Assembly (NCBI RefSeq): GCF_001949145.1
Contig: NW_019091478.1
Location: 802,408 to 833,379 of the forward strand
DNA: 30,972 nucleotides
Direction of reading: 5' to 3'
Source: Acanthaster planci
Lineage: Eukaryota
The translations under genes and the position numbers were made by a program. Positions 11,361-30,972 of the stretch are shown piece by piece (positions within the stretch are counted from its first letter, which is position 1; the number at the start of each line of letters is the position of its first letter). The notes under the pieces are model-generated. The model was not told the DNA's origin. It worked only from the letters and a program-made list of their open reading frames with translations, and did not search any database.

Positions 11361-11980
11361 CTGTAAATCGAGAGGATGTAGAATTTTGGCACATTATTCT
11401 CTTTTTATTTGTATAGCGTTAAGTTCTCTAAGGTCAAAAAAGTCTCCGGCTCTTGGTCGGCGGTGTAATTTGGTTTAATATGATGTCCGAAGCTTCTACA
11501 CTTGCTTGATCGACTGGAATCCTACTCCTGCATAATTTTAATGTGTTTTAGATTGGATACGGCTGAGTAATATGTACTGTTGAGCCCCTCTAGGCCCCCG
11601 TACACTGACATCAGTTTTGTATCATACATTTACAATTGGGAACCAGACAAAAGAGGTGGTCTAATGTCCTTGTACGCGTACATCTGCAAGCTGAAAATGC
11701 TTCTATACAGTAAACAGTGAGGGGCCAGTTTATTTGTGTGTTAGTAGCAGTTGCAATGGACATCGCACATTATACATGTATGTACATCATTTGAAGGGAA
11801 AAAAAGTGAGGGGGAAAAAAAAGCTGCATCGCCGCACTACTTTTGGAGCCAGCCCCTGACCAGGAACCAGAGACCTTTTTGGCCTAACAAAGAGTAAATT
11901 GGTACGTTTTGGAAGTACATGTATTCTGAAAAATGGTGTTGAACTGTTTATCCTCACAAGCAGTGCTGGAGTTGAGTCCA

Positions 11981-12062
11981 TCACAAGTCCCTTCACAAAT
12001 CCCTTTCACAAGTCCCTTCACAAATCCAGTCGCAAAGTCCCTTCACAAGGCCAGTCACAAGT
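11981..12062. repeat. Minisatellite with about 8 copies of an 11-bp unit TTCACAARTCC (equivalently a 21-23-bp unit CACAAGTCCCTTCACAAATCC in 3.5 copies)
   Basis: The sequence reads tcacaagtccc ttcacaaatccc tttcacaagtccc ttcacaaatcc agtcgcaaagtccc ttcacaaggcc agtcacaagt. Confidence 0.8.
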
Positions 12063-15040: not shown

Positions 15041-18000
15041 CAGGAAACAAATTAAGATCAAAACAAAAAATAAATTAGAAAAATGCAAAAGAAATACAAA
15101 GGGAGAGGAGCATTACCAATTTGCTTAAAGACATCAAAATTGACCCCATCCACTTAAATGGTTCATCAGATCGCCGCTGATGAGTACTTTGCTCCTGGAA
15201 ACAAATACCCTGGAAATAGTGCTTTGCCCCCGGATTAAAATCCTATCCACACCCATGAGTAGGTATTTTCCTTACATAGGAAAACTCCCACTGTTTACGC
15301 AGTTCGAAGTTCCACAGCTTTCATTGTCCGTCTAATTACCAAAGCTTTTGCAGGAAGAATTTAAATTCTGGATCACTTTGAAGAGTTAAAAACAATGGGT
15401 TGTAAAACATAATTACCTACTTCAGCCTGTTTTTGAATGGTTGGTCAATACAGATCACGAAGTGGACAGACTTTGCCGATAGAAATTATCGCGAAGAATG
15501 TTTGAACGTCAAGCTAGCAACGATAAAATCTTCCCAAATCAGTAAAACTCTTAAACAGAATTAGTCTTTTACATATTACTATTATTTATTAAACCAAAAA
15601 TAATCTAATACAGTCACCAAAGGCGTAACAGTGATACAGATTTATTTCAATAAAGATTCTCTACATGGAAAGATTACAATCGGAGACCACACTTTTATGG
15701 GAATATTTCAGACTAACATACATCTATAAATTTCTCTACCAGATAGATATTTGAAGGAATTAAACAATAACAAAATATATGCATACATGTATTGCAACTT
15801 CAAAACATACTGTGCCTTAGTCTTCAAATTCCAAAATTTAACATTGGTTTCCTCATCAAATGAAAATAGGTATGTTAAAATGAACTAATGTATGATTTGA
15901 TCAACTCCAGAGAAAAACAGACGTACCAGATTACAGGCATTTTTCATGAATTTGAGTTACAGAAGTTTTTATATATAAAAACAGGAACACTGAGGCTATA
16001 TTAGAAAGGTAAAATCTTGGTCTTCAAATACACAACTTGTTGATATATACCTTCTATGTCAAGACACTCACTCTGACAAGGCGATGGTCCAGAAATCTGC
16101 AAAAATCTGTCTGCCATTGCCGACACCTGATGAAGAGAGATGCAGAATTCTAAGAAACTTTTCTAACCTTGCAGGTTGGTATGGACTGCTCATCCCCATC
16201 TTCGTTTTTCTTTCTCAAATCCTTCATCCCAATACCTTACATTATCTTTATATCCCCACTGACTTGAACTTTGAACCTTTGGTCATTCGACTCCAACTGT
16301 TTTTTTGTTACCTCTAAGGCCACTCATGTTCCACCAAAGGATGGAGTTGACCACTAAGCAACCACCTGTGCCCTAGGCAAAAGTTCACCCCAAGTAGAAG
16401 AGAAAGATCTAAGCTAACCACAGAGTAATTTGGTACATAAATTTCCTTATTCATGTGGACCATATGCATGACTGGATTGACAGAGAGGCTAGGCTTGGCC
16501 ATTTTTCCGGCCAGAGCTTTTGCTCCACAGAGATACACAATTTGAATCTTTTGTGCTATCTCTTCCTGACAAAAGCAGTTACCAGAAAGATGGCTGCCAT
16601 GCACAACTTTTATTAGATTCCCACTTCGCTAACTTAAACAGAAATGTCAAACAGTAGACAACATCCAAGTGCAGCCTCACTTTTCTTGGGCAATACCATG
16701 TCAACAGCGAAAGAATATACGATCTATTCATGCACTGCAATACTATACAAAATCAGTAACATCAACAGAAAAAAATGTCAAACCTCAGATTGACTATAAA
16801 AAGAATTGGATCTGTTTGAGAACATGGTTGTCATTTATCAAGCTTGAAATCATTCATTAAAACTCTAATCTGATGCCTTTCTTTTTCATGCTAAAATCAC
16901 AAGATATTTTTGACCTTTGTATCTTAACAATGTTCCCCAAAAGAAAGTGCAAATGTTTCGTTACAGCAAACCGAGCAACCTGTTTCAAAATACAGAATAT
17001 TGCAAATACTAAATGATGTCCGTAATACCTAAAACACATGTACAAGTACATGTACATTGCTTCAAATTCTAGACAAATGCACACAGTGCCAAACAAAATA
17101 AACGGAGCTTACTTGTTACACTTTAACCGCTGGCCCTCTTGGCCTATTGACCTCTTAAGAAACACTGAGTACCATATTGAAAGAAATTATTTGATATAAA
17201 TTTCAAAGGTTACATAGAAAAGCTTTATCTAATGCATTTAACATCTTCACGATGAGCTGCTATAGTTTGAGTGTGATTCTCCATCTTGCCGACTCAGATT
17301 TTCTCTGCGGACCTACTGCGCCAATCCAGGAAGTAAACGTTCCCCAGTTTGTCCCCGCATATCATCTCTGTGCTGTCGGAGACTGGAGATGCGGTAACCG
17401 TGGTAACAGGAGCCTGGCAGTAAAACTGACCAACCTGGAAGACACAAAATTGGAATCACAGGCAATAGCTTCTTCCATACATAGTTAAGACCAGAGAAGC
17501 AAACTTTTCAAAATGAATAAGTGTAATCCTATATCGCACTTCCAGTTCCGGTTTTCCGACCGACCCTAATTTTTCGGACCCCAAAAACTTTCATCGGCAA
17601 ATTAGAAAAACAATAAATTATTTTTTTAAAGTCCTGTGTCTTTTTCTTTCTATACAAACAAATGTCAACAACTTCTTTTCACATCAAAACACTGTTCATT
17701 ATAATGATAATTGGGGCAAACTGATGATTCAACGAAGCTGGTTTCTGCCCCTACTCAAGAGTCCCATATGCACCAACTGTGGGATGCCTGCAACACATTC
17801 CTGACACGCGCATTAAGAGGCCAGCTCTGTGCTAGCTTACATAGAGTTTATACATAACTGTATGGTTTGTACCTTAGCGAGTCTGGATCGCATATTCGTA
17901 AATGGATTAAACAAATCGTAAAAATTACGCCTAAATTGTACAAGTTGGAATCTATGTCAGACAAATACTTTCCAAAAAGCAACTCAGAATGCTGAAACGA

Positions 18001-19529
18001 TGACTTAAGACAAGTGTCTGCTTTTATGCTAGCTACAGAGGGAAGTTTTCGGGAAGTTTGAAGGTGCAACAATGAAGGTATATGGCAACATTTTCACCAC
18101 AAGATATATGTGGCAAGTCAGGTAGACTGGGCAGAACACCTGTGCTGCCTGTTCACTGTTCTGTAACGGCATCTATGAAATATGACAGTTGTATGTTTGA
18201 AATAATTTTCCCTCCTTTGTTTATTTTGGACATCAGTGGTCAAAAATGGACCAAAAGGGATGGACTTCCCCCACCCCTGTGGAGGATGAGGCTGTTCTTC
18301 CATGCATAACACTTTCCTATGATTGATAATCACTGTCTAGCAAAATTATGATGTCAATTTTTTTTCTCCACCTGACCCTGAAATTTGAGAACTAAATCTG
18401 AGAAGCATACGGATTTGGAGCACACATTACCTGTTTCAGATTCTTTCTAGACCACAGCTTGAGGGCGCTGTCTTCTGAAGCCGTGCAGATTACATCATCA
18501 CAGACAGCAATATCATGAACAGCACTTGTGTGAACCTGTTTCGAGAAATGTAAAACTTAATCTTCGTTTGCTACTGAAACTGCATAAAAAACTGATGACT
18601 TTAACCCTAAAAGCAATGGGGGGGGATCTGCCCCCTTCACATTTTTTCAGTATCTCCGCAGTGCATTTTTTTTTCAGGAGCTGAGCCTTTAGGAGTTTTT
18701 AGACTAATTCTGTGTGGTCATTTTGAAACCAATTTTGAGAAAAATCTAACCTACCGTTCTCGTACAGCACCTTTTTTTCTGTGAAAGGTCGTAAAAAAAT
18801 GTATACTGTTTCCACTGCGGTGCTCAAAGCACGCGGGCTGGCATGCATGGTAGCCATGAACTTCAAATGACCGTAACAACAAAATGACACATTTAGTTGA
18901 TTTCAAACTTCACTTTGGTTATGCTAATGAGTGTCTTCCCATGCATGCCAAGTTTAAGAAAAACAAATCGAGCGTGGCACAGCTGAGTTTTGGGGGGGGG
19001 GCCCGAATCCACCCCACCCAGCTGAGAGACTGGCCAAATTAACCCAGCTCCTTCAAGGTTTAACTAGCTGAAAATAAATAAAAGCTAACAATGGCCAAAG
19101 GAGCAGTCTGAAAGACTGAAATTTAAAATTAATGAACTATTTCTCGAGTTTACATCACAGGCATTTGAATAAAAGTGCATTTTTTGGTACATTTTGAAGT
19201 GTGACATTGGTTTTACAGTTGCAATACAGGAACAAGAAAGTTGGAATTCTGAAAGCAATGCTGTAATTTGGGATAATATGTGAGTAGATCTCAAACGGTT
19301 AGCCCTTAAGGCCTTCCTCCAGTAATTTTGTTTTTGTTTACATCAGAAAGAGCTAGAAGAGCTTTTTCGTTTGGAGGGTCACTCATTTTGGCATCCTCTT
19401 GGAAACTGAAACTTAGTGAGAGAAAAAAATGTTGAGGGCTCCTACTGACTTCCACTTTGCTAGATCCTTGTACAGCGCTTGATCTCAAAAGTGGCAGTGT
19501 TGACTTGCGCCTTATTTCGTTAGGTTGGG

Positions 19530-19835
19530 TCACACATGCATCCTTTTTTCGACTGCAACATCAGTACCACTTGACGAAGTATGCCTCTGCTGGCGTACCT
19601 TCTTCCTGGCAATGACTTCATCCGTCATCACGTCGCACACCGTCAAGTAGCCCTTGGAATCGCCAGTCAGCACGGCCCTGTTCTTGCCGCTGACCTTCTC
19701 CCCGAGACCAAGGGTCTTGCCGCTTCGTAGCTGGAGCCCGGTGCAGGCGTGGACCCAGCAGGGCTCCTGGTAGCCCACGGACTGCTCCTTGGTGGAGGGG
19801 TCGACGATGCTTAACTTGGAGCTCCTCTCCAGCTC
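19530..19835 (-). CDS. WD40 gene terminal coding exon W18 (about 62% GC); ELERSSKLSIVDPSTKEQSVGYQEPCWVHACTGLQLRSGKTLGLGEKVSGKNRAVLTGDSKGYLTVCDVMTDEVIARKKVRQQRHTSSSGTDVAVEKRMHV*
   Basis: The acceptor tgtttcaactccag|g precedes it. The stop codon TGA is at 19532-19530. The start is given in ORF-track coordinates, where codon E54 of ORF 19530..19994 begins at 19835. My own character count of the displayed text puts it at 19836 because of an apparent extra G in a G-run near 19797-19801, so treat the 5' boundary as +/-1. Confidence 0.6.
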   Translation of the reverse strand, partial: ELERSSKLSIVDPSTKEQSVGYQEPCWVHACTGLQLRSGKTLGLGEKVSGKNRAVLTGDSKGYLTVCDVMTDEVIARKKVRQQRHTSSSGTDVAVEKRMHV

Positions 19836-19863
19836 CTGGAGTTGAAACAGAAGAATACAAAGT

Positions 19864-19980
19864 TCATGCTCACACTGGGTCATTTTGTCAAAAAATTTCC
19901 ATTCTTTTATCTGCTCACATTCATGCTCACAACGGGTCATTTTGTCAAAAAACATCCATTCTTCCATTCTTTTATCTATC
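19864..19980. repeat. Tandem duplication, 2 copies of about 58 bp (tcatgctcaca(c/a)(t/c)gggtcattttgtcaaaaaa(t/c)(t/a)tccattctt...ttttatct), in the last intron of the WD40 gene directly upstream of the terminal-exon acceptor
   Basis: Copy 1 spans 19864-19920 and copy 2 spans 19921-19980 at about 88% identity. Track ORF 19530..19994 reads through it, giving the repeated EWMFFDKMTRCEHEC / EWKFFDKMTQCEHEL. Confidence 0.8.
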
Positions 19981-20106
19981 GGTGAAATAGTCAATTTCTT
20001 TTTGTCTCTTCAGAAAAATTCTTGAACAAGCAGCACTACTTCTTGCCACAACAAAAAAAATATTAAAGAAAAGATGTGCTTCAATGTATTCATGATGGAT
20101 ACGTAC

Positions 20107-20212
20107 CAAATTCTTGAAGTGCTGGAGTTCCCCGTTGGCAAAGCTGGCAACTAGAGTGTTGTCTTTGAGAATCTTCAGATCCAGAACCCAGTCGGACGGT
20201 TCCTCTGACCCT
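20107..20212 (-). CDS. WD40 gene exon W17; (R)GSEEPSDWVLDLKILKDNTLVASFANGELQHFKNL
   Basis: The acceptor cttgtttcttcag|a sits at 20214-20213 and the GTACGT donor at 20106. Confidence 0.55.
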
Positions 20213-20592
20213 CTGAAGAAACAAGATTTTATGATTATATGGCCTTGATTTCCCCCTCAACAGTTACTGGCTAATATTCCAGCACAGCTCCATCTGTGTA
20301 GCTCAGTAATATGTCAACAGCAATGCTAATCAAACTGAGGTTCCCAAGCTTTTGGACCATGGTCCTCCCTACGGGGTCGTTCTCGCACGTGGAGAACTCC
20401 ACATTCAGTGCGCAAAATATTAATTGATACAATTACTTTATTACTTACATATTATCCTGATTAGCAACAGTGATCAGTGCTGTACAAATCCTTGCATTTT
20501 ACTTTGTTACATTTAACAAAGTGAAGTGTGTATGCTTAAAGCATTCTTCCATCTGCAACTACACAGATATTTGGGGCATAGACCTAGTGTAC

Positions 20593-20748
20593 CTTTGATG
20601 AACCCGGCGGGTCTTTCCAGAGTCACAGCGGAACATGCAAATCATGCCTGACCAATGACCTGTGTAGAGGCTATCCCTTAAGGGGTCATAGGTCATGCAG
20701 GTCACTGGGCTCTTGTCCTGGTCAGCGGCAAACATAGTCTTCCGATAT
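20593..20748 (-). CDS. WD40 gene exon W16; (P)YRKTMFAADQDKSPVTCMTYDPLRDSLYTGHWSGMICMFRCDSGKTRRVHQ(R)
   Basis: The acceptor tgtttctttag|a sits at 20750-20749 and the GTACAC donor at 20592. The frame equals track ORF 20559..20762. Confidence 0.55.
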
Positions 20749-20894
20749 CTAAAGAAACACAAAACTTAATTAATCAGTAACAGTTCATTTTTTTTGTAAT
20801 GAATCATGAATTCTCCACACTAAAGAAATGTTCTTTTTTCTCTGGTCCATAAAATTTTGTGACATGTTTCCTTCTGTCACTCCAAAATACTCAC

Positions 20895-21025
20895 GGTACT
20901 CTATATGCTGTATTGGGTGGGGTGGGGGCTTCGATCTCCCACACTGTCACAACACCCTCATCAGAACCCAGAGCAAACCTGGTATTACCCAGGAAGGTGA
21001 CAGAATTTATAGCCTTTTCCGCCAA
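20895..21025 (-). CDS. WD40 gene exon W15; LAEKAINSVTFLGNTRFALGSDEGVVTVWEIEAPTPPNTAYRV(P)
   Basis: The acceptor ttttgctttcccag|t sits at 21027-21026 and the GTGAGT donor at 20894. Confidence 0.55.
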
Positions 21026-21219
21026 CTGGGAAAGCAAAATAAGATTGGCATTAATTTGCATACATGTATTTGAAGCAGTGGAATTAAAAAAAAAAGTAAA
21101 TTACCACATAAATCTTTGGAGAGCTGAAGTCCACATTTTGTAATAAGAAAGTCAGATATTTCACAGCAAGTTAGCTAACAAGAAGAAAAGCAGAAGCTCC
21201 AAATAGTTCATTTTTATAC

Positions 21220-21301
21220 CTTGCTTGAAAACACCATCTTGGGAAGGGCATCGGCGGATGAATTCTTGTCTGGCATTTCCCACACCATTACTTCACCACT
21301 C
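21220..21301 (-). CDS. WD40 gene exon W14; (R)SGEVMVWEMPDKNSSADALPKMVFSSK
   Basis: The acceptor tttcgtgcag|g sits at 21303-21302 and the GTATAA donor at 21219. It completes the blade VSTSRSGEVMVWE. Confidence 0.55.
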
Positions 21302-21673
21302 CTGCACGAAATGAAACATCAGCAAGAAATGGGAAAAAACATGAAATCTTGAAATTGAACTGTGACTATCTTCTTTCCCCAACAAACTTAGTAAATTTTG
21401 CAAATCTTGCCCAATTATCACGACAGGCCCTATTTGACTAACAAATTAGTGATCCTCAAATCAGAAACATTCAAGATAAACTTTTGCCTTGTTTCATTGA
21501 CCAATAGGGTGTCATGATTTGCCAAATGCACGGGCGCGTCAAGCTTAAGAATGTGTGGCTGCAGTCATGGCGTCTCCTTGGATTATTGTATAAATATGTC
21601 CTTAATTTGGTAGTGCCTGAGCGTTGCAGCAAGCCATTACAAGATTAGCCATATCCCTATCCCATGCAACTAC

Positions 21674-21765
21674 CTGCTGGTGGAGACTGCAAAGGTGCCC
21701 TTTGTTGAGTACGCTGTGCTGGTCACTTCTCCATTGTGGCTGACAGACAGGATCTGAGCCTCAAG
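21674..21765 (-). CDS. WD40 gene exon W13; LEAQILSVSHNGEVTSTAYSTKGTFAVSTS(R)
   Basis: The acceptor ttccccctcag|c sits at 21767-21766 and the GTAGTT donor at 21673. Phase 2 out matches W14. Confidence 0.55.
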
Positions 21766-22188
21766 CTGAGGGGGAATAATTACGAATGCATCACAGTGGA
21801 TTAAGATATTATGCATCCTGCAGAAATGAACAAACAAGCTGCTCTGGCAAAAAGGTTGTGTTTCCTATTTTCCTTACTTTGACTGCTTGAGCATAAAAAT
21901 TGAGGGGGGGGCGATTTTGGGGAAATGTGGAATTGGAGATGAAGGAAAAAGGTGTGTACTTTAGTTTGAATGGGTGCAAAGAAAGTTATTTCCTCTTTAA
22001 TGAGTCTTCTCTCAAAATGTTTCTTGCCATGCCCAAAAAGTAACATCTTCCTTACCACTCTAGAACTGAGGTTTTTCTTTGAATGGTCAAAGTGTTTTGA
22101 CTGAAAGTCTCACTCTCCAAAGTTAACTGAGGAAGTTAGCAAAAGGGGTAATACTCCAATCTTCGAGCACCCTGCCTTGGGGGTTTAC

Positions 22189-22308
22189 CTTTGGTGTCCA
22201 GATCTTCACCGTCTTGTCCAGTGATCCTGTGATGATATCACCTTTGCCGGACACGGCTACAGCCACCACACTGTCCGAGTGACCACTCAATGATGCCATC
22301 TCGTTGCC
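22189..22308 (-). CDS. WD40 gene exon W12; GNEMASLSGHSDSVVAVAVSGKGDIITGSLDKTVKIWTPK
   Basis: The acceptor aattgtctccag|g sits at 22310-22309 and the GTAAAC donor at 22188. It is a textbook WD blade. The frame equals track ORF 22123..22338. Confidence 0.7.
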
Positions 22309-22607
22309 CTGGAGACAATTAACAAAAGTATCCATCATCCCTCATTCCTATGAAGCAATTTGTTTTCCTACAAAAGTCAGGTTTCCAAGGTGATATTTAC
22401 TGTCAATGGAAAGACATGCAATGCAATTGGATCGAAGAAGATGAGATTGAAGTACTCTTGGAACATGCACGTAAGTGTGATGTAGTATTTCAAAGAGAGT
22501 TCCTTTAAATCTGGATAAGGGCCTGGCCCCATCAATGGGCTGGACCATGTATACCAGGGATGGCCAGTAGTGGAGGAGACAACAAGCAAATAACACAATG
22601 GCCTCAC

Positions 22608-22801
22608 CTGTAGAGGTTTCCACAGGTGTGTCATGGCATCGTCACCGCCAGTTGCCACGACAACATTCTCCAGCCGCACCATCTCCACCTTGTCCAGTTT
22701 CCTCTTCTCGTGCTTGTCCTTCCACTCCTCTTTGGCCACCATGCTTGACCAAGGCTGGCTCGGCGCTCCAGACTCTTTGGTGCCCAGGTCTTCAAATAAA
22801 T
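22608..22801 (-). CDS. WD40 gene exon W11, with a charged insertion; (D)LFEDLGTKESGAPSQPWSSMVAKEEWKDKHEKRKLDKVEMVRLENVVVATGGDDAMTHLWKPLQ
   Basis: The GTGAGG donor sits at 22607. The acceptor is either the CAG at 22804-22802 (used here) or the AAG at 22792-22790, which would start the exon at 22789 and drop LFED. Both are phase compatible. The frame equals track ORF 22377..22898. Confidence 0.55.
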
Positions 22802-22999
22802 CTGCCGCCAAAATGACCAAATTCACAAATGCACATGAATGCTTATAGAAATTCCGGCTCTTGTTTTTGGAAATTGTCAAACTAAAGGCCAACAGCAAAA
22901 TTGTTCAAGGCCACATATGCATTTGAAAATTTGGTGAATGTACCAGTTGTTATTTCATGACCCCTATAAATTGATTTAATCTCTCCTGAGTTCCTTAGA

Positions 23000-23069
23000 T
23001 TAACCCTAACCCCCTAGGGTGTATGTAAAATGGTATTGAAATTGAAGGATTTGGGACTGTTAGGGTTAA
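23000..23069. mobile_element. Miniature palindromic element of about 70 bp with 11-bp perfect terminal inverted repeats TTAACCCTAAC / GTTAGGGTTAA (telomere-like CCCTAA core)
   Basis: The left inverted repeat is at 23000-23010 and the right at 23059-23069. Related solo half-sites are GTTAGGGTTAAAG at 11215-11227 and TTTAACCCTAA at 18600-18610. It is intronic (WD40 gene intron W10-W11). Confidence 0.4.
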
Positions 23070-23526
23070 AGAAATGTTTTCTGCGTTGACTGTTGATATC
23101 TTTCAATGAATACATTACAGTAAACTCTTCATATCTGAGCTCCTTCTTCAGATACTTCTAAAAACTGTGAATTACAAGAAAATACTGCTGAACAACATAC
23201 TTGACATCTGTGTGTTGCTACCACTGCAAACTAGAGGGTCCTACTTTGGAATGCTTCAACATAAATCCCAGATTCTGATTGCAATGCAATTTTTATGAAG
23301 TATACAAAACCATTAAAAAAACGCAGCGTACAAATACGCCTTTATGTCCAATGTGTTTGAAAAATCATATTATAAAATTTGGAGGATTAATTAAGGACTG
23401 TTGGGCTAAAGATAATCAGGGTTCTATTGAGAATCACAAATAAAGTGATGGAAGTTTCACGCTTTGGATTTCCTTAGAGTAGGGAAGTTCACATATCCTT
23501 GTTCATACAGGACTATCTGCGCTTAC

Positions 23527-23665
23527 CCTCAAGCTGCTTGGCCGACACAAAGATATCGCAGCAGTTGACGCGACTGTTGTGGCCGTACAGGGTGGTGATC
23601 TCAATGCCCTTGTGTGACCAGACTCGGATGGTACCATCAAAGCAGGCGGACACAACACAGCCTTG
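23527..23665 (-). CDS. WD40 gene exon W10; QGCVVSACFDGTIRVWSHKGIEITTLYGHNSRVNCCDIFVSAKQLE(D)
   Basis: The acceptor ccggtcatttcag|c sits at 23667-23666 and the GTAAGC donor at 23526. The frame equals track ORF 23513..23854. Confidence 0.7.
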
Positions 23666-24303
23666 CTGAAATGACCGGGGTAAAAAATACATAAACACTA
23701 AAATAATGGGAAGGAACAGGGAAATAAGCACTGATACTGCTTCTCTCTTGAGAACTCTGCTGCGGCTTTTTGAAGGGAAGACGGCAGGATCACAGAATGA
23801 GGGGTCCGTAAGAGATTGCTCCTTGTGGCGGTTGGTCGTCCCAGCACTTTTCAACTGTGCTTGAATTGCAAAGCTTAGAATGGTGAGAATTCCAGAAACC
23901 CAAGATCGGCAGGTGTGCTTAGAATTGGGCAGTTGGCAGAGTTTTACAACTAGGAGAAATTTACAGGTTAGTGTGACATCGAAGAGCAGCCATTCTTCTC
24001 AGCGTGGTAAAGGGGGTAAAAATGGGGCATCACTGTGCCAAACAATATTAATCTCGCGAGAGTGAACTGGTTGTATTTTGGGGAAAAGTGCAACTTCTTG
24101 AAATTTCTAACTTAATGAGTTTATTTACTGAGTTACCATATAGATATGTGCTTGTGCGGTGCTTTAAGATAGTGATGAAAGACAGATGACAAACATAAGG
24201 ATGTTACATTTTAGGTTTCAACTGTACATTTCAAAACAAGCGGCCCCTTTGGAACACTTCTTCTTGTAAAATTTATCCTGGGAATAAACCTTGAAGGACT
24301 TAC

Positions 24304-24411
24304 ACTGTACGCAACAGCGTTGATGGCGCTGGTGTGCCCGATAAACTGGCATTTTTCATTCATGGCTTTCATGTCCCAGAGTTTCAGGGTGAAGTCATTA
24401 GAAGCAGTCAC
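24304..24411 (-). CDS. WD40 gene exon W9; VTASNDFTLKLWDMKAMNEKCQFIGHTSAINAVAYS
   Basis: The acceptor tcttgttgcag|g sits at 24413-24412 and a GTAAGT donor at 24303-24298. The frame equals track ORF 24211..24420. Confidence 0.7.
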
Positions 24412-25100
24412 CTGCAACAAGATAAAGCATAGGACTTGTTATATCAATTCTTGGTCAGTGAACCTTATTCTTCACTTTGGGATGATGCTCAGCTCTTGCA
24501 ATGGTAGAGTAAAAAAAATGGTAGACTGAACCTCCTTTCATCTCCTGGATTTAGCAGATAAACAATCCCATGAATGTATCACCAAGCACCAGCAAATATT
24601 CACACCTTGAAAATATCAAACCCACTATTCCCAAAGCAGGATGACTTGCTAGAAAAGCTTCTGGTAAGTTCTGCAACTTTTACGAGTGACTGTTGGTGAA
24701 ATCACACCACAAGAGCAACGCAACGTCCAAAACTTCAACTATCTACACCAGCCAAAGATTTCCGCTTTCGACGTTGTTCAGTGGACTGATTTGAAGAAGA
24801 AAACACAGCTCATTAGTGGTTGAAGATTTTATTGAAATAAAGCAACCCACATCAGTGCTTATGTCTTAATGAGAGGGGTCACATTGATCAGTATACCTCA
24901 ATTTAGCAGCAAACCTTTTAACAACTTTGATTAAACCTGGTGCCTCTCTGGGTAGCTAGGTCTCACTGTCGTTTGATTTCCCTAGAAACTAAATCTTTCT
25001 TCTTGTCCGAATTATTGATTGATCATTATTCTGGTAGGTAAACAGTAAATTTGAAGGTATTTAGGAATACATTCATTAGAGAGATTATCACTTGTCGTAC

Positions 25101-25238
25101 CAGGAAGTCGTTGCTATCTGACCAGCACAGCGCCGTCACCCAGTCCTTATGGCAAGCGTGTATCTCGGCCAGTGGTCGCAATGCTTTGCCTCGCTTGCCG
25201 CTTATGTAGTCACTCTCCATGCTCCACACCTGCAGGCT
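25101..25238 (-). CDS. WD40 gene exon W8; SLQVWSMESDYISGKRGKALRPLAEIHACHKDWVTALCWSDSNDFL
   Basis: The acceptor tttttgccctcacag|a sits at 25240-25239 and the GTACGA donor at 25100. The frame equals track ORF 25026..25409. Confidence 0.65.
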
Positions 25239-25325
25239 CTGTGAGGGCAAAAATTGCAATGAGCCAAACTTTAGAGTGTTCATATCCGAGGAAAATTGGG
25301 GATGCGAAAAGAATGTGACGTGCGA

Positions 25326-25965
25326 CCCATAACCGACCCTGTTCCAACAACACAAACGTGAATGCCACCACCATCCCAAAAACCAGGCTGAAAGAATGTT
25401 AAGCTGCATGTACTATCGGCAAAATGACACCAAAATGAGCAATGCAAACTCAAAAATTCGGTCACTGCCAACAACTACTGAAGATTTCTGTAGACACAAT
25501 TCTTCCTTTACATAACTCTGAAGCATGAAAAACCAACAGCAATGGGAAGACTTGTCAACATCAATCTACCTACTTCAGCTTGGTTTGGAAACACTTGGCC
25601 AAAAGGAATCTTGTTTCAAGTGCTTAATCTAACACAAAACACATAAAGCACAGCCAGTATACCAGTGCAGTACTCATCCTAACAGATTCTAACAAACCCT
25701 GGTGTTGGAATTTGGTTGGTTGGGGATCGATATCTCCTTCATCAAGCTTTTTAAAGAACCAGATTATTCCATTTGCAAAACCGTACCCCCATAACCACCC
25801 CTGTCCAAATATTACAACAGAAAAGGTTTTAACTGTTTAGTTGGTTTCATCAAATTTTTCCTAGCAACCAAGTTTACTACATCTGAAGGACATAAGTAAC
25901 CAACCCTGTCCTAACAATACAAAGGAAAATGTTTCAGTTGTTAATAAGTTTCATCAAAGTTTCAT
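25326..25965. repeat. Three dispersed copies of a 45-75-bp intronic repeat (CATAACCRACCCTGTYCMAACAAYACAAA...GTTTCATCAAA) at 25326-25370, 25786-25860 and 25896-25965
   Basis: Found by direct comparison. Copies B and C also share the 3' half (gtttyarytgttwaktwrgtttcatcaaa). It lies in WD40 intron W7-W8. Confidence 0.55.
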
Positions 25966-26396
25966 GAACACATCAAAAACACCAAGTTTTTGTATTTGAA
26001 AAGTCATGAATGTGAAATGCCACGACAGCAAGACCCACTCACTGCCTTTTTGGCACAAGAATGAGCCTTGAGCTGGACCAATAGAGGGTGCAATTTTCTC
26101 AGCAACAGAGGGTCCCTTTGGTCAGAAGTAAACTTCGCTAGTGTACGACTAACTAGGAAATGCATGTGTTAAGCTTGCATCGCTACCTACAAAATTAACA
26201 CTCCTGATCAATATGGCTCTTTTCAACCGATGAGGGGGTGCTTCTGCTCGAGGCTGCTACTCTAAGCTCTTTTAAGCATGTTCCGCACTACAAAATCTCA
26301 AAACTGACATTCTTTGTCCTTGTGTTAGGGAAGCAACAAATCAATCATTCTGACTCTTCTTAGCTTTTCAAGTCTCGTTGACCTTGGTGATCTTAC

Positions 26397-26499
26397 CGCA
26401 TCTTTGCTTCCCGTGGCCAGTCTGGTGCCGTCCACACTGAACCCACAGCAGGTCACGGTGCCGTTGCAAGTTGCATGGATCACAGCAAGGCAGTCCAGG
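26397..26499 (-). CDS. WD40 gene exon W7; (T)LDCLAVIHATCNGTVTCCGFSVDGTRLATGSKDA
   Basis: The acceptor ctgtatgcag|c sits at 26501-26500 and the GTAAGA donor at 26396. It joins W8 to give ATGSKDASLQVWS. Confidence 0.6.
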
Positions 26500-26936
26500 C
26501 TGCATACAGCGGAAGAAATTGTATGTCAGAAACTGTGTTTATCATTATGGAAATAAATCTGGCCACTGACGGTGGCTAACATGTTTCAGAAGCAATGCTA
26601 CACAAATCATGAGCAACAAAAGACAGGAAAACAGGCATAAGGAAACAAAAACAAGAGCTAGTTCCTTGATTCAAAAGGGGGTTCCAATGTTGCACCCCAA
26701 AGGTTATTAAAAAAACTCCAAAACAAAAGAAAACACACCATACTGTTAACCCCCCCAGAACTATTCAAAAAGTATCTTCCTTTGCATTAATGTCGCTCTA
26801 ACATTACCCTCAACCCAGATGAACAAATATCACACAGTACCAGTACTTGTCTTTTTGAGGGGCAATTTCAGGGGAGGAGGTCACAAAGGAAGAGCAATAC
26901 AACCAAAAAAGAACCTCGAGTCAAAAATGTGCCTAC

Positions 26937-27103
26937 GTTTTCTGGTTGGGCTTGCGGTCGTAGGGCAAGCGCCATATGTGGATGGTGTTGTCCTCGTAGG
27001 TGGCTGCTGCCAACCGGTTGGGCATGCTGTAGGCCAAGCTGGTGACCGGCTTCAGATGGGAAGCCAGGACGGTGTTGACGGAACCCTTGGTTCCCGACAG
27101 AAG
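26937..27103 (-). CDS. WD40 gene exon W6; LLSGTKGSVNTVLASHLKPVTSLAYSMPNRLAAATYEDNTIHIWRLPYDRKPNQK(T)
   Basis: The acceptor caatccatag|c sits at 27105-27104, with an in-frame TAG just upstream in the intron. A GTAGGC donor sits at 26936, immediately before an in-frame TAG. Exit phase 2 matches the phase-2 entry of W7. The junction GDVA|LLSGTKGSV mirrors the canonical TIRLWDLRTGK spacing. Confidence 0.55.
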
Positions 27104-28079
27104 CTATGGATTGAAGACAGGGGTAAAATTAATAAATAATCGACTGAAGGAGAGAGTTTGTGATTTCTTTCCCCGTGCTGGGTCACTGCAAAAGATAGTT
27201 TGTTCTGTCTACAGTTTGTTCCATCTCTTTTGCAGAATACCCCCTCCTGTAAATGGAGCTGTGGCGCTGGTAAACCCCGCTTTAACTATCCCCAGCCCTC
27301 TGTGGGTTTTCTTTAAGCACCCTGCCAAACCCGACAGAACCCAACAGCTAGAGCAAAAGGCCTTTTGTTCACTTTTGTTCATCAACAAAATCCCACAGAA
27401 AGAGTCCACAACTGAACATTGTTGGCTTTATCATGGTTACGGTTAAGGGTCCTCTGATATTTACAAATGTCAGGGAGGCTCCACGGTTGCCATGGACACC
27501 ATTTTTTTCACTTTATTTCAATTGAAACTGCTTCTCTCAGTGGACATTATCAAAAGGACACCAAAACTTCCAAAGCCTTCCACATGTTTTCATTTTGCAA
27601 TCACAACATGAGTGGCACTGACTCCATATTTGATATTCTGGCAAATTCTGTGTTCATCTGTGTAATAACCAATTGGCTGAGAATGAAGCATATAAATAAG
27701 ATTGCAGGCTCTTCATAATTAGCATAAAAGCAACCAAAAATGTGAACTGAATGCTACACAGAACACATAGTGACATTCGTTTCAGTTCAGTGTGAATATT
27801 TGCTATCACGTAATAAATTTCTATTGTTTGCTTTTGTCCCACGTGTGAACCAGTCTGTAATTACAACGGATTACAAACTGGAAACCAAAACATCTATTAA
27901 AGACGTTACAGGTCAGTACAGGAAGAATGTAAAATTAAACTAGAGCTAAATAAAAATTAAACTTGACGTGTTACAAGATTTTGTGGGGTTTTGTGGGTTA
28001 CTTGTGGGTGAAAACCTTGAATTACCCCTTATTTAATTTTGCACTCTTCCCTGATGATTTTTATTGTCAGCGCACTCAC

Positions 28080-28343
28080 TGCGACATCTCCAGAATCCCA
28101 TCCGGCCAGCAACTCCCGCTGACCTCCTGGGGTCATGACCCATCGCAGCCCCATGACCCTGGCCTGGTGGTGCTGCACTTCCCAAATCACCGCCCCGCTG
28201 TTTGTCTCGTACAGCCGCACACTGCCGCCGTGGTAGCCCACCGCCACCTGCATCCCGTCCAGGCCGATGACCGCGGCCGTGACATGGCCGTAGCGGTCCA
28301 GGCCGAAGGTGGCTGTTTTGCGGCCCAGGTTGCCGGACCACAC
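28080..28343 (-). CDS. WD40 gene exon W5 (about 65% GC); VWSGNLGRKTATFGLDRYGHVTAAVIGLDGMQVAVGYHGGSVRLYETNSGAVIWEVQHHQARVMGLRWVMTPGGQRELLAGWDSGDVA
   Basis: The acceptor ttttcttag|g sits at 28345-28344 and a GTGAGT donor at 28079-28074. It continues the blade begun in W4 (DDQRVK|VWS). It matches track ORF 28029..28343. Confidence 0.65.
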
Positions 28344-28698
28344 CTAAGAAAATTGTCAGCGGAGAATGAAGGTGGAAGTTGTTCGCTTTAATTGAGAAAA
28401 TGTGCCAGTACCCAACACACTTTACACTGTGTATGTTATTATGACCAATTCCTAGAAGAATTTTGCTAAGCACCAGGGCTCCAGCCAATGTTGTATGAGA
28501 AACCATCTCAAAGCTGTACACGAGACCAGACACAAGACCAGTGGCAACTAACAGGGTGAACAATGGCAACGGAATGCTTATGTTGTAGTTCATTTGAATA
28601 GCTTTTGACTTGAATTCAGACTGCAGGGCTTTTGCGACTTCCAGAGACAACTTTCAGTGAAAGTAAACATAGATTGCCAATTTAATATAAGTTGTTAC

Positions 28699-28797
28699 CT
28701 TGACTCTCTGATCGTCACTGACAGTCACGAGCTGCCGTCCGTTGGGTGAGAAAGCTAGACGGTTGATGGGCATCACATGTCCGTCCAAGCCCCCAAC
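28699..28797 (-). CDS. WD40 gene exon W4; VGGLDGHVMPINRLAFSPNGRQLVTVSDDQRVK
   Basis: The acceptor cactactgaccag|g sits at 28799-28798 and the GTAACA donor at 28698. The frame equals track ORF 28654..28950. Confidence 0.65.
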
Positions 28798-29649
28798 CTG
28801 GTCAGTAGTGAAAGAAAGTGGAACACTTTCAAATTTTGTAGTTTGGGGCAGGTTTTCAGTAACAGACCACTTATGGATGTCATAACAGGAGGTTTGGAAA
28901 GTAGAACCACCATTTTCAACATTCAGAATTGAATTTTGATGGTGAAACACATCAGAGAAATGGCCTCAGAGACAATATCCTATGGATCCCATCTGTCTTG
29001 GAGGTTGAGGGTTCACCAATTTCAAAGTTTTTCTGTCTATAAAGTACTCATAATGAGACGGGTTTCAAAAGAGGGAAGTTTTCATTTTTAAATTTGTTAC
29101 CTCAAATGATAACCCTGCCTCTTTTAAACTGATGAAATATCTGGTTGGAAATAATGTAACAAAATTCAAACAATGTGCATTAGATGGATTGTTAAACAGC
29201 ACATGCTTTCCAGCGGCTGTACATGAGTGATTGAGGGCACTATCTTTCCAAGTACTGGCATCTTCAGGGTCAACAAATACTTCATGCATGCACAATCTGA
29301 ATGTGCGTAGGCCTGTGAGGTCTTCACTTGGGCACCAGCCCCACCCAGTGTTGGTCCGTACTCTCATTCGACTAAGGCCATGTCTGAATTACTTGGCTGG
29401 GCACGAGTCTATGGTAGTGGCTACAGCCAGTTCCCACAATGTCGCGTGTGATTTCAGGCCACAGGCAAATGACTTGAATGCGGCCTACGCACAAAATAGA
29501 TTTGCTTAGCAAAAACAGTTACCAGCCAAAAAAATCTTGCGACGTATACTATTTCTAATTGGTTTCCCGCTAACTTCCTGGCACGCAAATTTCGCTAAGC
29601 AATAATTTCAGCTCAAAAGCCCTATGAGGCTGCACCGTGGCCGACATAC

Positions 29650-29769
29650 CTGGGTGCCAGTCTTTGAGGACCAGATTTTGACCGTTCCATCCAGGGATGC
29701 TGAGGCAATGTGCGCCCCACTCGGAGAGTATGCTACTGCACGCACCGAGGCCTTGTGACCTCGCAAGAT
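29650..29769 (-). CDS. WD40 gene exon W3; ILRGHKASVRAVAYSPSGAHIASASLDGTVKIWSSKTGTQ
   Basis: The acceptor ttttgtggtag|a sits at 29771-29770 and the GTATGT donor at 29649. It is a canonical WD blade in a frame the ORF track does not list, because an in-frame TAG lies immediately upstream in the intron. Phase is 0 in and out. Confidence 0.7.
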
Positions 29770-30152
29770 CTACCACAAAAAATTCAGGTGACAAAGGAAG
29801 TGCATCGGTAAAATGCAAGTACAAGCAAATGCAACCTGACCAGGGTCCAAATTTCTTCCATCAAATTCTCTGTCGGAAAGCAAAGCAAATGCTTCTAGCC
29901 TTTTTTGTTGACAAAACAGTGTGAAATGCATGTGTGACTACTGCTGTGGGCTATTCCCTGGTCAATAACTGAGTTTTCACACTTTTGATTGATACAGAAC
30001 CACGAAGAAAATTATTTGAATCCTACAGGTATTTCTTCCAATCACTGTGTAATACATTGATTTACTTTTTAGTCCTTGGAAGCCTGATATAAATTTTAAT
30101 CTAATGTAATGCTTTTAACCACATATGCAGGGGGAGGGGGTGTTTCACTCAC

Positions 30153-30408
30153 CCCTAGTCTCTTTTTCTCCTCCACGTGCCAGATCTTCATGGCTGCGTC
30201 CCAGCCTCCTGTCACCACCATCCTGCCCTCTGGGTGGAACGCCACGCAGTTGATGGGGGTGTTGTCACTCAGGGTGTCTAGAAGCCTGCCGTCGCTGTCG
30301 TCCCACAGCCTCAGGCTGCAATCCCAGGAGGCGGAGACAATCATGGAGCAGCGGCCGCTGTGGCAGCAGGAGCTAACGCGACGTCGGTGGCCCTTCAGGA
30401 CGGCAATC
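30153..30408 (-). CDS. WD40 gene exon W2; (R)IAVLKGHRRRVSSCCHSGRCSMIVSASWDCSLRLWDDSDGRLLDTLSDNTPINCVAFHPEGRMVVTGGWDAAMKIWHVEEKKRLG
   Basis: The acceptor ttccctag|g sits at 30410-30409 and a GTGAGT donor at 30152-30147. Two full WD blades are present (GH...SASWDCSLRLWD and FHPEG..TGGWDAAMKIW). The frame equals track ORF 30096..30593. Confidence 0.7.
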
Positions 30409-30917
30409 CTAGGGAACCAGGAAGAATCGCAGGGTGTTGTGGAACAGTTCTGGGTGAGTTCGCGCAGCGAAAAACGCAGCCAACGTAAAATAGGAATGGA
30501 ATGAGATATGACAAAATGTGATCCACTCTGTGAAAGCGAAAAAGTCTCCAGAACTGCTTTGGAGATAATAGCCTGAATAGAAATCTTACCCAAATTTCAC
30601 CCTCATAGTGTTCATTCTCATTGGGATATCAAACTAAGCATATAAAAAAACAGCTTAGTCTGTCCTTTCTTATCAAAAGTGATTCTGGCGACTTCTGATT
30701 CACTTTCACACTGACAGTTCTGGGCAGCTGAACTGGGGTCATTAAGGTGAGCCTATAATAGCACTCAACCAGTGGTCTGCTACAGTCTGGGTTCCAACTT
30801 GTTCTTGTTTTACCATTGGGGGATCTATAGGTATCAGGTCTATACAAGTTGCACAAGGCAGGGTTGTGGCTAATACAAGAAGTCTGGTAGGCAAGACAGC
30901 GATGGCTGCACACGCAC

Positions 30918-30972
30918 CTATGTCCCTGGTTGGCATCCCACAGACTGAGTGTCTGGTCAACGGAGGCCGTGA
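30918..30972 (-). CDS. Multi-WD40-repeat protein, partial exon W1 (continues beyond the right edge); ...TASVDQTLSLWDANQGH(R)
   Basis: The WD signature DQTLSLWD is present. The donor AG|GTGCGT at 30917 has phase 2, matching the phase-2 acceptor of W2. The frame equals track ORF 30629..30913. Confidence 0.5.

Follow-up and report, generated by a model that had tools for sequence, protein, structure and literature searches.

Can a gene that runs off the edge of a stretch of DNA be assigned to a family from its last exons, and where does it end? The question is raised by 30,972 nucleotides (nt) of Acanthaster planci DNA (assembly GCF_001949145.1, contig NW_019091478.1, positions 802,408 to 833,379), referred to here as the window and numbered from its first letter. 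The window has approximately 41% GC, and its minus strand, from 30972 to approximately 19500, is rich in short open segments with WD40 hallmarks (GH...D...W). The original prediction joined these segments into a large WD40 gene that ended at TGA 19532-19530, and held its family to be unassignable while the upstream part lay outside the window. As argued below from profile matches and colinear homology, the feature is very probably the 3′ portion of an orthologue of TEP1 (telomerase protein component 1, a vault- and telomerase-associated protein), comprising its last 936 residues, and its coding sequence continues beyond that TGA.

A WD40 reading frame colinear with TEP1

The exon model was built by enumerating, for each pair of neighbouring segments, all frame-keeping GT (or GC) donors and AG acceptors, scored with a rough splice matrix, the choice among candidates being guided by a colinear homologue, P0002. 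The result is a chain of 20 GT-AG exons from 30972 to 17294 on the minus strand, with consistent phases and a single 936-residue frame without a stop, nearly all of it WD40 blades. Eighteen of these exons lie within the earlier span (30972-19599) and form one stop-free frame, as anticipated when at least 18 exons were joined by phase, and the frame is indeed open at the window edge (30972). The proposed continuous WD40 protein of about 900 residues thus stands as one frame, its full count within the window being 936 residues in 20 exons. Exons have a GC content of 56.5%, compared with 39.5% for introns. The PF00400-type profile search of the joined exons, suggested earlier as a check, yields a Pfam WD40 match to the spliced model with E = 7e-90; the WD40 gene signal is real and far above chance.

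P0002 and the associated contigs L001-L003 derive from JGI metagenome 3300046527, in which JGI annotates them as "telomerase protein component 1". P0002 aligns to the window protein at 41% identity over 873 columns, with all 20 exons covered, and is encoded on 11-kb contigs directly downstream of TROVE and DUF4062/NACHT/WHD_NWD1/APAF1_C reading frames. Because P0002 encodes the equivalent of exons 1-18 in one 866-codon frame without interruption, there is strong comparative evidence that the window exons belong to one gene. P0002 was the sole informative match in a first homologue search that was swamped by bacterial multi-WD40 proteins, and a word-indexed search with the last 349 residues returned no match, since this C-terminal region has diverged so far that no 5-residue words are shared.

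Profile analyses point directly to TEP1. PF25048 (Beta-prop_TEP1_C, "TEP-1 C-terminal beta-propeller") matches residues 857-928 over its whole profile (positions 1-73 of 73), with 103 bits when the C-terminal piece is scored by itself (cut-off 32; next family 36 bits) and 196 bits for the whole model. Similarly, PF25047 (Beta-prop_TEP1_2nd, the second propeller) matches residues 256-477 at 245 bits (cut-off 89). When residues 419-936 were compared exhaustively by HMMER with 1.84 billion representative proteins, the best match was a 2574-residue protein (aligned at 2060-2573). Full-length proteins of 2356-2756 residues stand at or near the top, with only 1-8 residues left between the end of the match and the C-terminus of the protein. 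The source names of the top matches are telomerase protein component 1 or telomerase protein component 1-like, and the species with a named TEP1 are Branchiostoma floridae, Lytechinus pictus, Mizuhopecten yessoensis, Priapulus caudatus and Anneissia japonica. Amphioxus and sea urchin provide the nearest relatives. Local alignment of the whole model with the amphioxus, scallop and priapulid proteins gives 40-43% identity, colinear over approximately 850-880 residues. Furthermore, in each of the three orthologues scanned (P0121, P0124 and P0131) TROVE is found at the N-terminal end (317-355 bits), PF25047 falls midway along the WD region and PF25048 occupies the very C-terminus.

These observations overturn the earlier view that the family could not be named without the upstream part. 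Among the candidate families listed at that time, TEP1-like NACHT-WD40 proteins proved to be the right choice and ciliary WDR proteins did not. Models of the latter (IFT122, IFT140, WDR19 and WDR90) give no full-length match and short partial ones only, such as IFT122_1st at 75 bits (13-121 of 350 positions) and IFT140_1st at 78 bits (38-132 of 406). The gene is an ordinary orthologue of a known, widely conserved animal gene, and nothing in the window departs from the known family.

The 3′ end and competing readings

A tblastn search with P0002 finds a match at 18532-18434, downstream of TGA 19532-19530. That codon, taken earlier for the end of the gene, sits 66 nt inside intron 18, the start of which (19530-19598, minus strand) had been read as coding (VRQQRHTSSSGTDVAVEKRMHV, then the stop). 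Intron 18 is 1063 nt long, in phase 0, from donor 19599/19598 to the acceptor before 18535. It is followed by exon 19 (18431-18535, 105 nt; VHTSAVHDIAVCDDVICTASEDSALKLWSRKNLKQ, acceptor tctcgaaacag/G, donor CAG/GTAATG), an intron of 996 nt and the last coding exon, exon 20 (17294-17434; acceptor tgtgtcttccag/G), which reads VGQFYCQAPVTT...GDKLGNVYFLDWRSRSAEKI and closes with the true stop at TGA 17296-17294, 2.2 kb beyond the earlier one. Exon 19 covers the first half of PF25048 and exon 20 the second half, so that jointly they complete the domain. In four full-length orthologues there is no gap, or nearly none, across junctions 18/19 and 19/20, and their C-termini fall where exon 20 ends. The two exons were missed because their open segments have no early start codon and the mechanical list of open reading frames (ORFs) holds only ORFs of 11 and 23 codons there.

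The metagenomic homologue offers an independent view of this site. In L001, the position and phase of intron 18 (phase 0, after KK) are shared by a true intron (gtaaga...ttccag), and the sequence behind it, SHASTVTSVAV...TDGTLKIWSS..QQVGQLVCRAPVT...DSLGNVEFF, is the PF25048 segment. Unlike the window gene, the P0002/L001 gene is nearly intron-free and has no intron at the 19/20 site. At L001 10205-10346, and likewise in L002 and L003, the prokaryote-style gene caller read through the shared intron into a tail that ends VRNKSL before a stop, the same error as the earlier end at TGA 19532-19530. The caller cut the TEP1 gene of L001-L003 into separate ORFs for TROVE, DUF4062/NACHT, WD40 and an 89-amino-acid (aa) C-terminal piece. 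In two of the public proteins, P0122 (Lytechinus pictus XP_063952437.1) and P0139 (Anneissia japonica XP_033107315.1), the alignment to the window protein extends only to approximately residues 770-779, followed by unrelated tails without the PF25048 C-terminus of the amphioxus, scallop and priapulid proteins. Mispredicted 3′ ends or alternative isoforms may account for these tails.

Might the gene instead encode another NACHT/NB-ARC-WD40 protein (APAF1, NWD1 or NWD2), or a TROVE-less, lineage-specific paralogue resembling TEP1? The N-terminal domains lie off the window, APAF1 is among the matches (140 bits by sequence; ranks 4 and 9 by fold) and the identity shared with named TEP1 proteins does not exceed 40-43%. 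However, the APAF1 match spans no more than residues 3-142, a generic WD40 likeness; colinearity with the TEP1 orthologues extends over approximately 880 residues up to the shared, full-length PF25048 segment; and TROVE is present in all three orthologues scanned. We consider these alternatives very unlikely. An APAF1-specific likeness of the WD40 region was considered separately and dropped, its 140-bit match being no better than those of WDR5 or FBXW7. More improbable still is an end of the gene at TGA 19532-19530, with the pieces at 18535-18431 and 17434-17294 belonging to another gene or to non-coding DNA. The open frame does reach that codon, as part of a 154-aa ORF in the ORF track (19994-19530), and an intron-retaining isoform is possible in principle, but the 22-residue read-through tail has no homology and no Pfam match, and neither AATAAA nor ATTAAA occurs within 1.2 kb after 19530. 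Downstream of the stop at 17296-17294, the first AATAAA is found at 16614. The downstream pieces have good acceptors, phase-0 continuity and no start codon of their own, and together make up the complete TEP1 C-terminal Pfam domain. The gap-free 18/19 junction in the four orthologues that end with exon 20, and the L001 intron at the site of intron 18, argue in the same direction.

Barely credible, in turn, is the reading of the locus as two genes, or as a pseudogene, with a true termination at TAG 26935-26933, a stop formed in frame by the T, A and G of the exon 6 donor (AAC/GTAGGC). This donor is weak (approximately -0.3 in the rough splice matrix), and the exon 6/7 junction lies in a variable linker in which homology cannot place the site. 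On the other hand, exon 6 ends at 26937 in phase 2, an exact fit to acceptor 26499, the first base after which completes the codon, and 26937 is the only frame-compatible donor that preserves the WD blade; the original claim that the GTAGGC donor bypasses the stop therefore holds. The homologous region is a continuous frame in P0002/L001 and in full-length orthologues, the 936 codons show no frame disruption at all, and the exons downstream of 26937 have neither a start codon of their own nor a promoter-like first exon.

Several points nevertheless weigh against the assignment to TEP1 and its exon model, the weak exon 6 donor among them. Among the 1.84 billion representative proteins compared by HMMER, none is more than 50% identical; this orthologue is therefore absent from that collection, which suggests an invertebrate lineage with sparse coverage there. 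PF25047, like many propeller families, also matches generic bacterial WD40 arrays and is weakly specific; more weight is therefore placed on orthology, and the TEP1-specific evidence is PF25048 and colinear orthology only. Exons for TROVE, VWA, the TIR-like domain and NACHT would fall upstream of 30972, off the window. The exon model draws on genomic sequence and homology. In the junction alignment with orthologues, conservation without gaps holds for 12 of the 19 junctions, 18/19 and 19/20 among them; the other seven (5/6, 6/7, 10/11, 12/13, 15/16, 16/17 and 17/18) lie in variable loops in which homology cannot fix the exact site, and are supported by phase and splice signals only.

Exon coordinates and surroundings

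All exons lie on the minus strand. Exon 1 (30918-30972), partial and running off the window edge, reads ..TASVDQTLSLWDANQGH(R) and ends in phase 2 at donor TAG/GTGCGT; its junction with exon 2 is conserved without gaps in four orthologues. Exon 2 (30153-30408, 256 nt) encodes two WD blades and exon 3 (29650-29769, 120 nt) one, 68% identical to P0002. The boundaries of exon 3 (acceptor ttgtggtag/AT, donor CAG/GTATGT) are exactly as first proposed. Exon 4 (28699-28797, 99 nt) is followed by exon 5 (28080-28343, 264 nt; donor GCA/GTGAGT), whose junction with exon 6 has no gap in two of four orthologues. Exon 6 (26937-27103, 167 nt) carries the weak donor, in a linker of variable length, and exon 7 (26397-26499) has 103 nt. 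Exon 8 (25101-25238, 138 nt) contains the conserved CHKDW motif, exon 9 (24304-24411, 108 nt) reads VTASNDFTLKLWD..., and exon 10 (23527-23665, 139 nt) ends in phase 1.

Exon 11 (22608-22801, 194 nt) encodes an acidic/basic insertion loop within a blade, followed by VVATGGDD..LWKPLQ. Exon 12 (22189-22308) has 120 nt. Exon 13 (21674-21765, 92 nt) takes its acceptor from the spacing in the homologue. Exon 14 (21220-21301) spans 82 nt, exon 15 (20895-21025) 131 nt and exon 16 (20593-20748), with an SPVTC motif, 156 nt. Exon 17 (20107-20212, 106 nt) lies in a weakly conserved region, with its junctions placed by phase and splice signals only, and exon 18 (19599-19835, 237 nt) ends ...DEVIARKK at donor AAG/GTACGC, in phase 0. 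Three alternative sites were tried and dropped. Donor 25230 would remove the conserved CHKDW blade that 25101 keeps, donor 27015 (in place of 26937) would remove a WD signature, and acceptor 21753 fits the homologue spacing less well than 21765.

The ORF track had been described as lacking one exon altogether. Exon 29769-29650 is indeed missing from it, as it lies within a 52-aa ORF and the default threshold is 60 aa, but the count was too low: exons 6, 7, 13, 14, 15 and 17 are likewise missed or only partly covered at that threshold. Exon 14 is absent from any ORF list because its open segment is only 34 codons long. Long ORFs also occur on both strands at 27963-28650, where they overlap the GC-rich exon 5: a plus-strand ORF of 142 aa and, in another frame, a minus-strand ORF of 205 aa. 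Their translations abound in G, R, P and A, and they seem to be spurious, a consequence of the high GC content of that exon rather than genes. Within intron 17 (19860-20000, minus strand), the translation shows a short tandem duplication, EEWMFFDKMTRCEHE and KEWKFFDKMTQCEHE, with a unit of approximately 60 nt in DNA; Tandem Repeats Finder gave no report of this duplication at score 60.

Elsewhere in the window is a tail-to-tail pair of MFS transporter paralogues akin to FLVCR1/FLVCR2 (SLC49 family). The minus-strand gene, approximately 13774 to 5218, lies downstream of TEP1 on the same strand, runs from ...ARWFILAVFSLLCALQAATWNTWGPI to ...MMYKEHYNRLDEDKMESSIQN and its stop, and looks complete. 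For the plus-strand paralogue (1-2232) only the 3′ part is in the window, ending ...LLMYKERYKRLNLDTKDE before its stop. A rough join of the FLVCR-like open segments matches FLVCR1/2 in the PDB at E of approximately 1e-7 and Pfam MFS_1 at 27 bits, just below the cut-off. The sole tandem repeat reported by Tandem Repeats Finder in the window, at 11977-12062, lies within an intron of the FLVCR-like gene (periods of 12, 25 and 37 nt, 2-7 copies, 75-81% matches). No tRNA and no Rfam family was found in the window.

Propellers, function and known relatives

How many blades does the window encode? A profile made from the protein's own clear repeats recognises approximately 13-15, a low count, as the C-terminal blades have diverged too far to be counted by sequence. 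P0002 was modelled by AlphaFold (mean pLDDT 80.4) as an all-beta protein with approximately 72 strands, or approximately 18 blades, in 866 residues; P0002 begins 38 residues before the window model and is without the last two blades. In the orthologues the WD region spans approximately 965-990 residues, and residue 1 of the window model aligns to residue 1648 of P0121, approximately 55-60 residues past the start of that region, so that one blade or slightly more lies off the window. Mapping from the P0002 model, with exons 19-20 added, suggests about 19-20 blades in the window of about 21 in total, most likely arranged as three seven-bladed propellers. The earlier figure of 14 or more blades is right as a lower bound, and early sequence-based counts gave 16 WD40 repeats in TEP1 (PMC2193651). 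No solved structure of the TEP1 WD40 region was found in the PDB copy searched by sequence and fold, which returned generic tandem propellers only.

TEP1 is located in the vault cap and is required for vault RNA stability and its association with the vault, whereas in mouse the loss of Tep1 leaves telomerase RNA levels and association unchanged; vault association and RNA binding have been shown biochemically for mouse Tep1 (PMC2193651). The order of its domains is TROVE, which binds vault and telomerase RNA, VWA, a TIR-like NADase (DUF4062/TeTIR), a NACHT ATPase, a helical domain and the WD40 propellers. Two 2026 preprints report that DUF4062/TeTIR is an active TIR-like NADase that hydrolyses NAD+, place it directly upstream of NACHT and propose a sensor role for the WD40 region (bioRxiv 10.64898/2026.05.01.722283, 10.64898/2026.09.21.753143). 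Because the TIR-like NADase directly precedes NACHT, which is followed by WD40, TEP1 has the STAND layout of effector, ATPase and repeat sensor.

If TEP1 resembles APAF1 and other STAND ATPases in this respect, its WD40 propellers in the window would form a sensor and auto-inhibitory module. Binding of a ligand to the propellers could release NACHT-driven oligomerization, in parallel with cytochrome c on the APAF1 propellers. Alternatively, or in addition, the propellers may serve as a surface that docks TEP1 in the vault cap. A putative sensor/auto-inhibitory or vault-docking module is the best inference for this region. Two further ideas, regulated retention of introns through the weak GTAGGC donor and the TGA in intron 18, or a lineage-specific paralogue with a different N-terminal effector, are together very improbable and find no support here. 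Regulated retention, if true, would produce truncated-propeller, sensor-less TEP1 isoforms, perhaps a constitutively active NADase/STAND protein.

For an ordinary TEP1 orthologue, the significance of the locus lies mainly in correct annotation, and TEP1 is of current interest since NADase activity was recently reported for it. The C-terminal exons by themselves are enough to identify a multi-propeller WD40 gene as TEP1. The last two exons are easily lost, being start-less open segments preceded by an exon that reads through to a nearby in-frame stop; the automatic annotation of P0002 has the same truncation, and the public models P0122 and P0139 possibly do as well.

The closest known systems are the TEP1 proteins (TEP1 is also called TLP1 or vault protein p240) of Branchiostoma floridae (UniRef100_C3Z4J5), Mizuhopecten yessoensis (XP_021378535.1), Priapulus caudatus (XP_014669734.1) and Lytechinus pictus (XP_063952437.1). 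Like named TEP1 proteins, the window protein has PF25047 and PF25048 segments and the same C-terminal end (…GD.LG.V.FL.W), and the motifs CHKDW, VTASNDFTLK and VWSHKG.EITTL are common to both. The window holds the WD40 part only, with the N-terminal two thirds, from TROVE to NACHT, expected outside it. APAF1 (PDB 3sfz, 3j2t) and the STAND ATPases NWD1 and NWD2 likewise place tandem WD40 propellers after the STAND ATPase, a similarity at the level of fold. The APAF1 propellers bind the ligand and keep the ATPase inactive, and the same model has been proposed for TEP1. APAF1, however, has two propellers, compared with approximately three predicted for the window protein, and lacks a C-terminus of the PF25048 type; its effector is a CARD, whereas that of TEP1 is a TIR-like NADase with TROVE/VWA.

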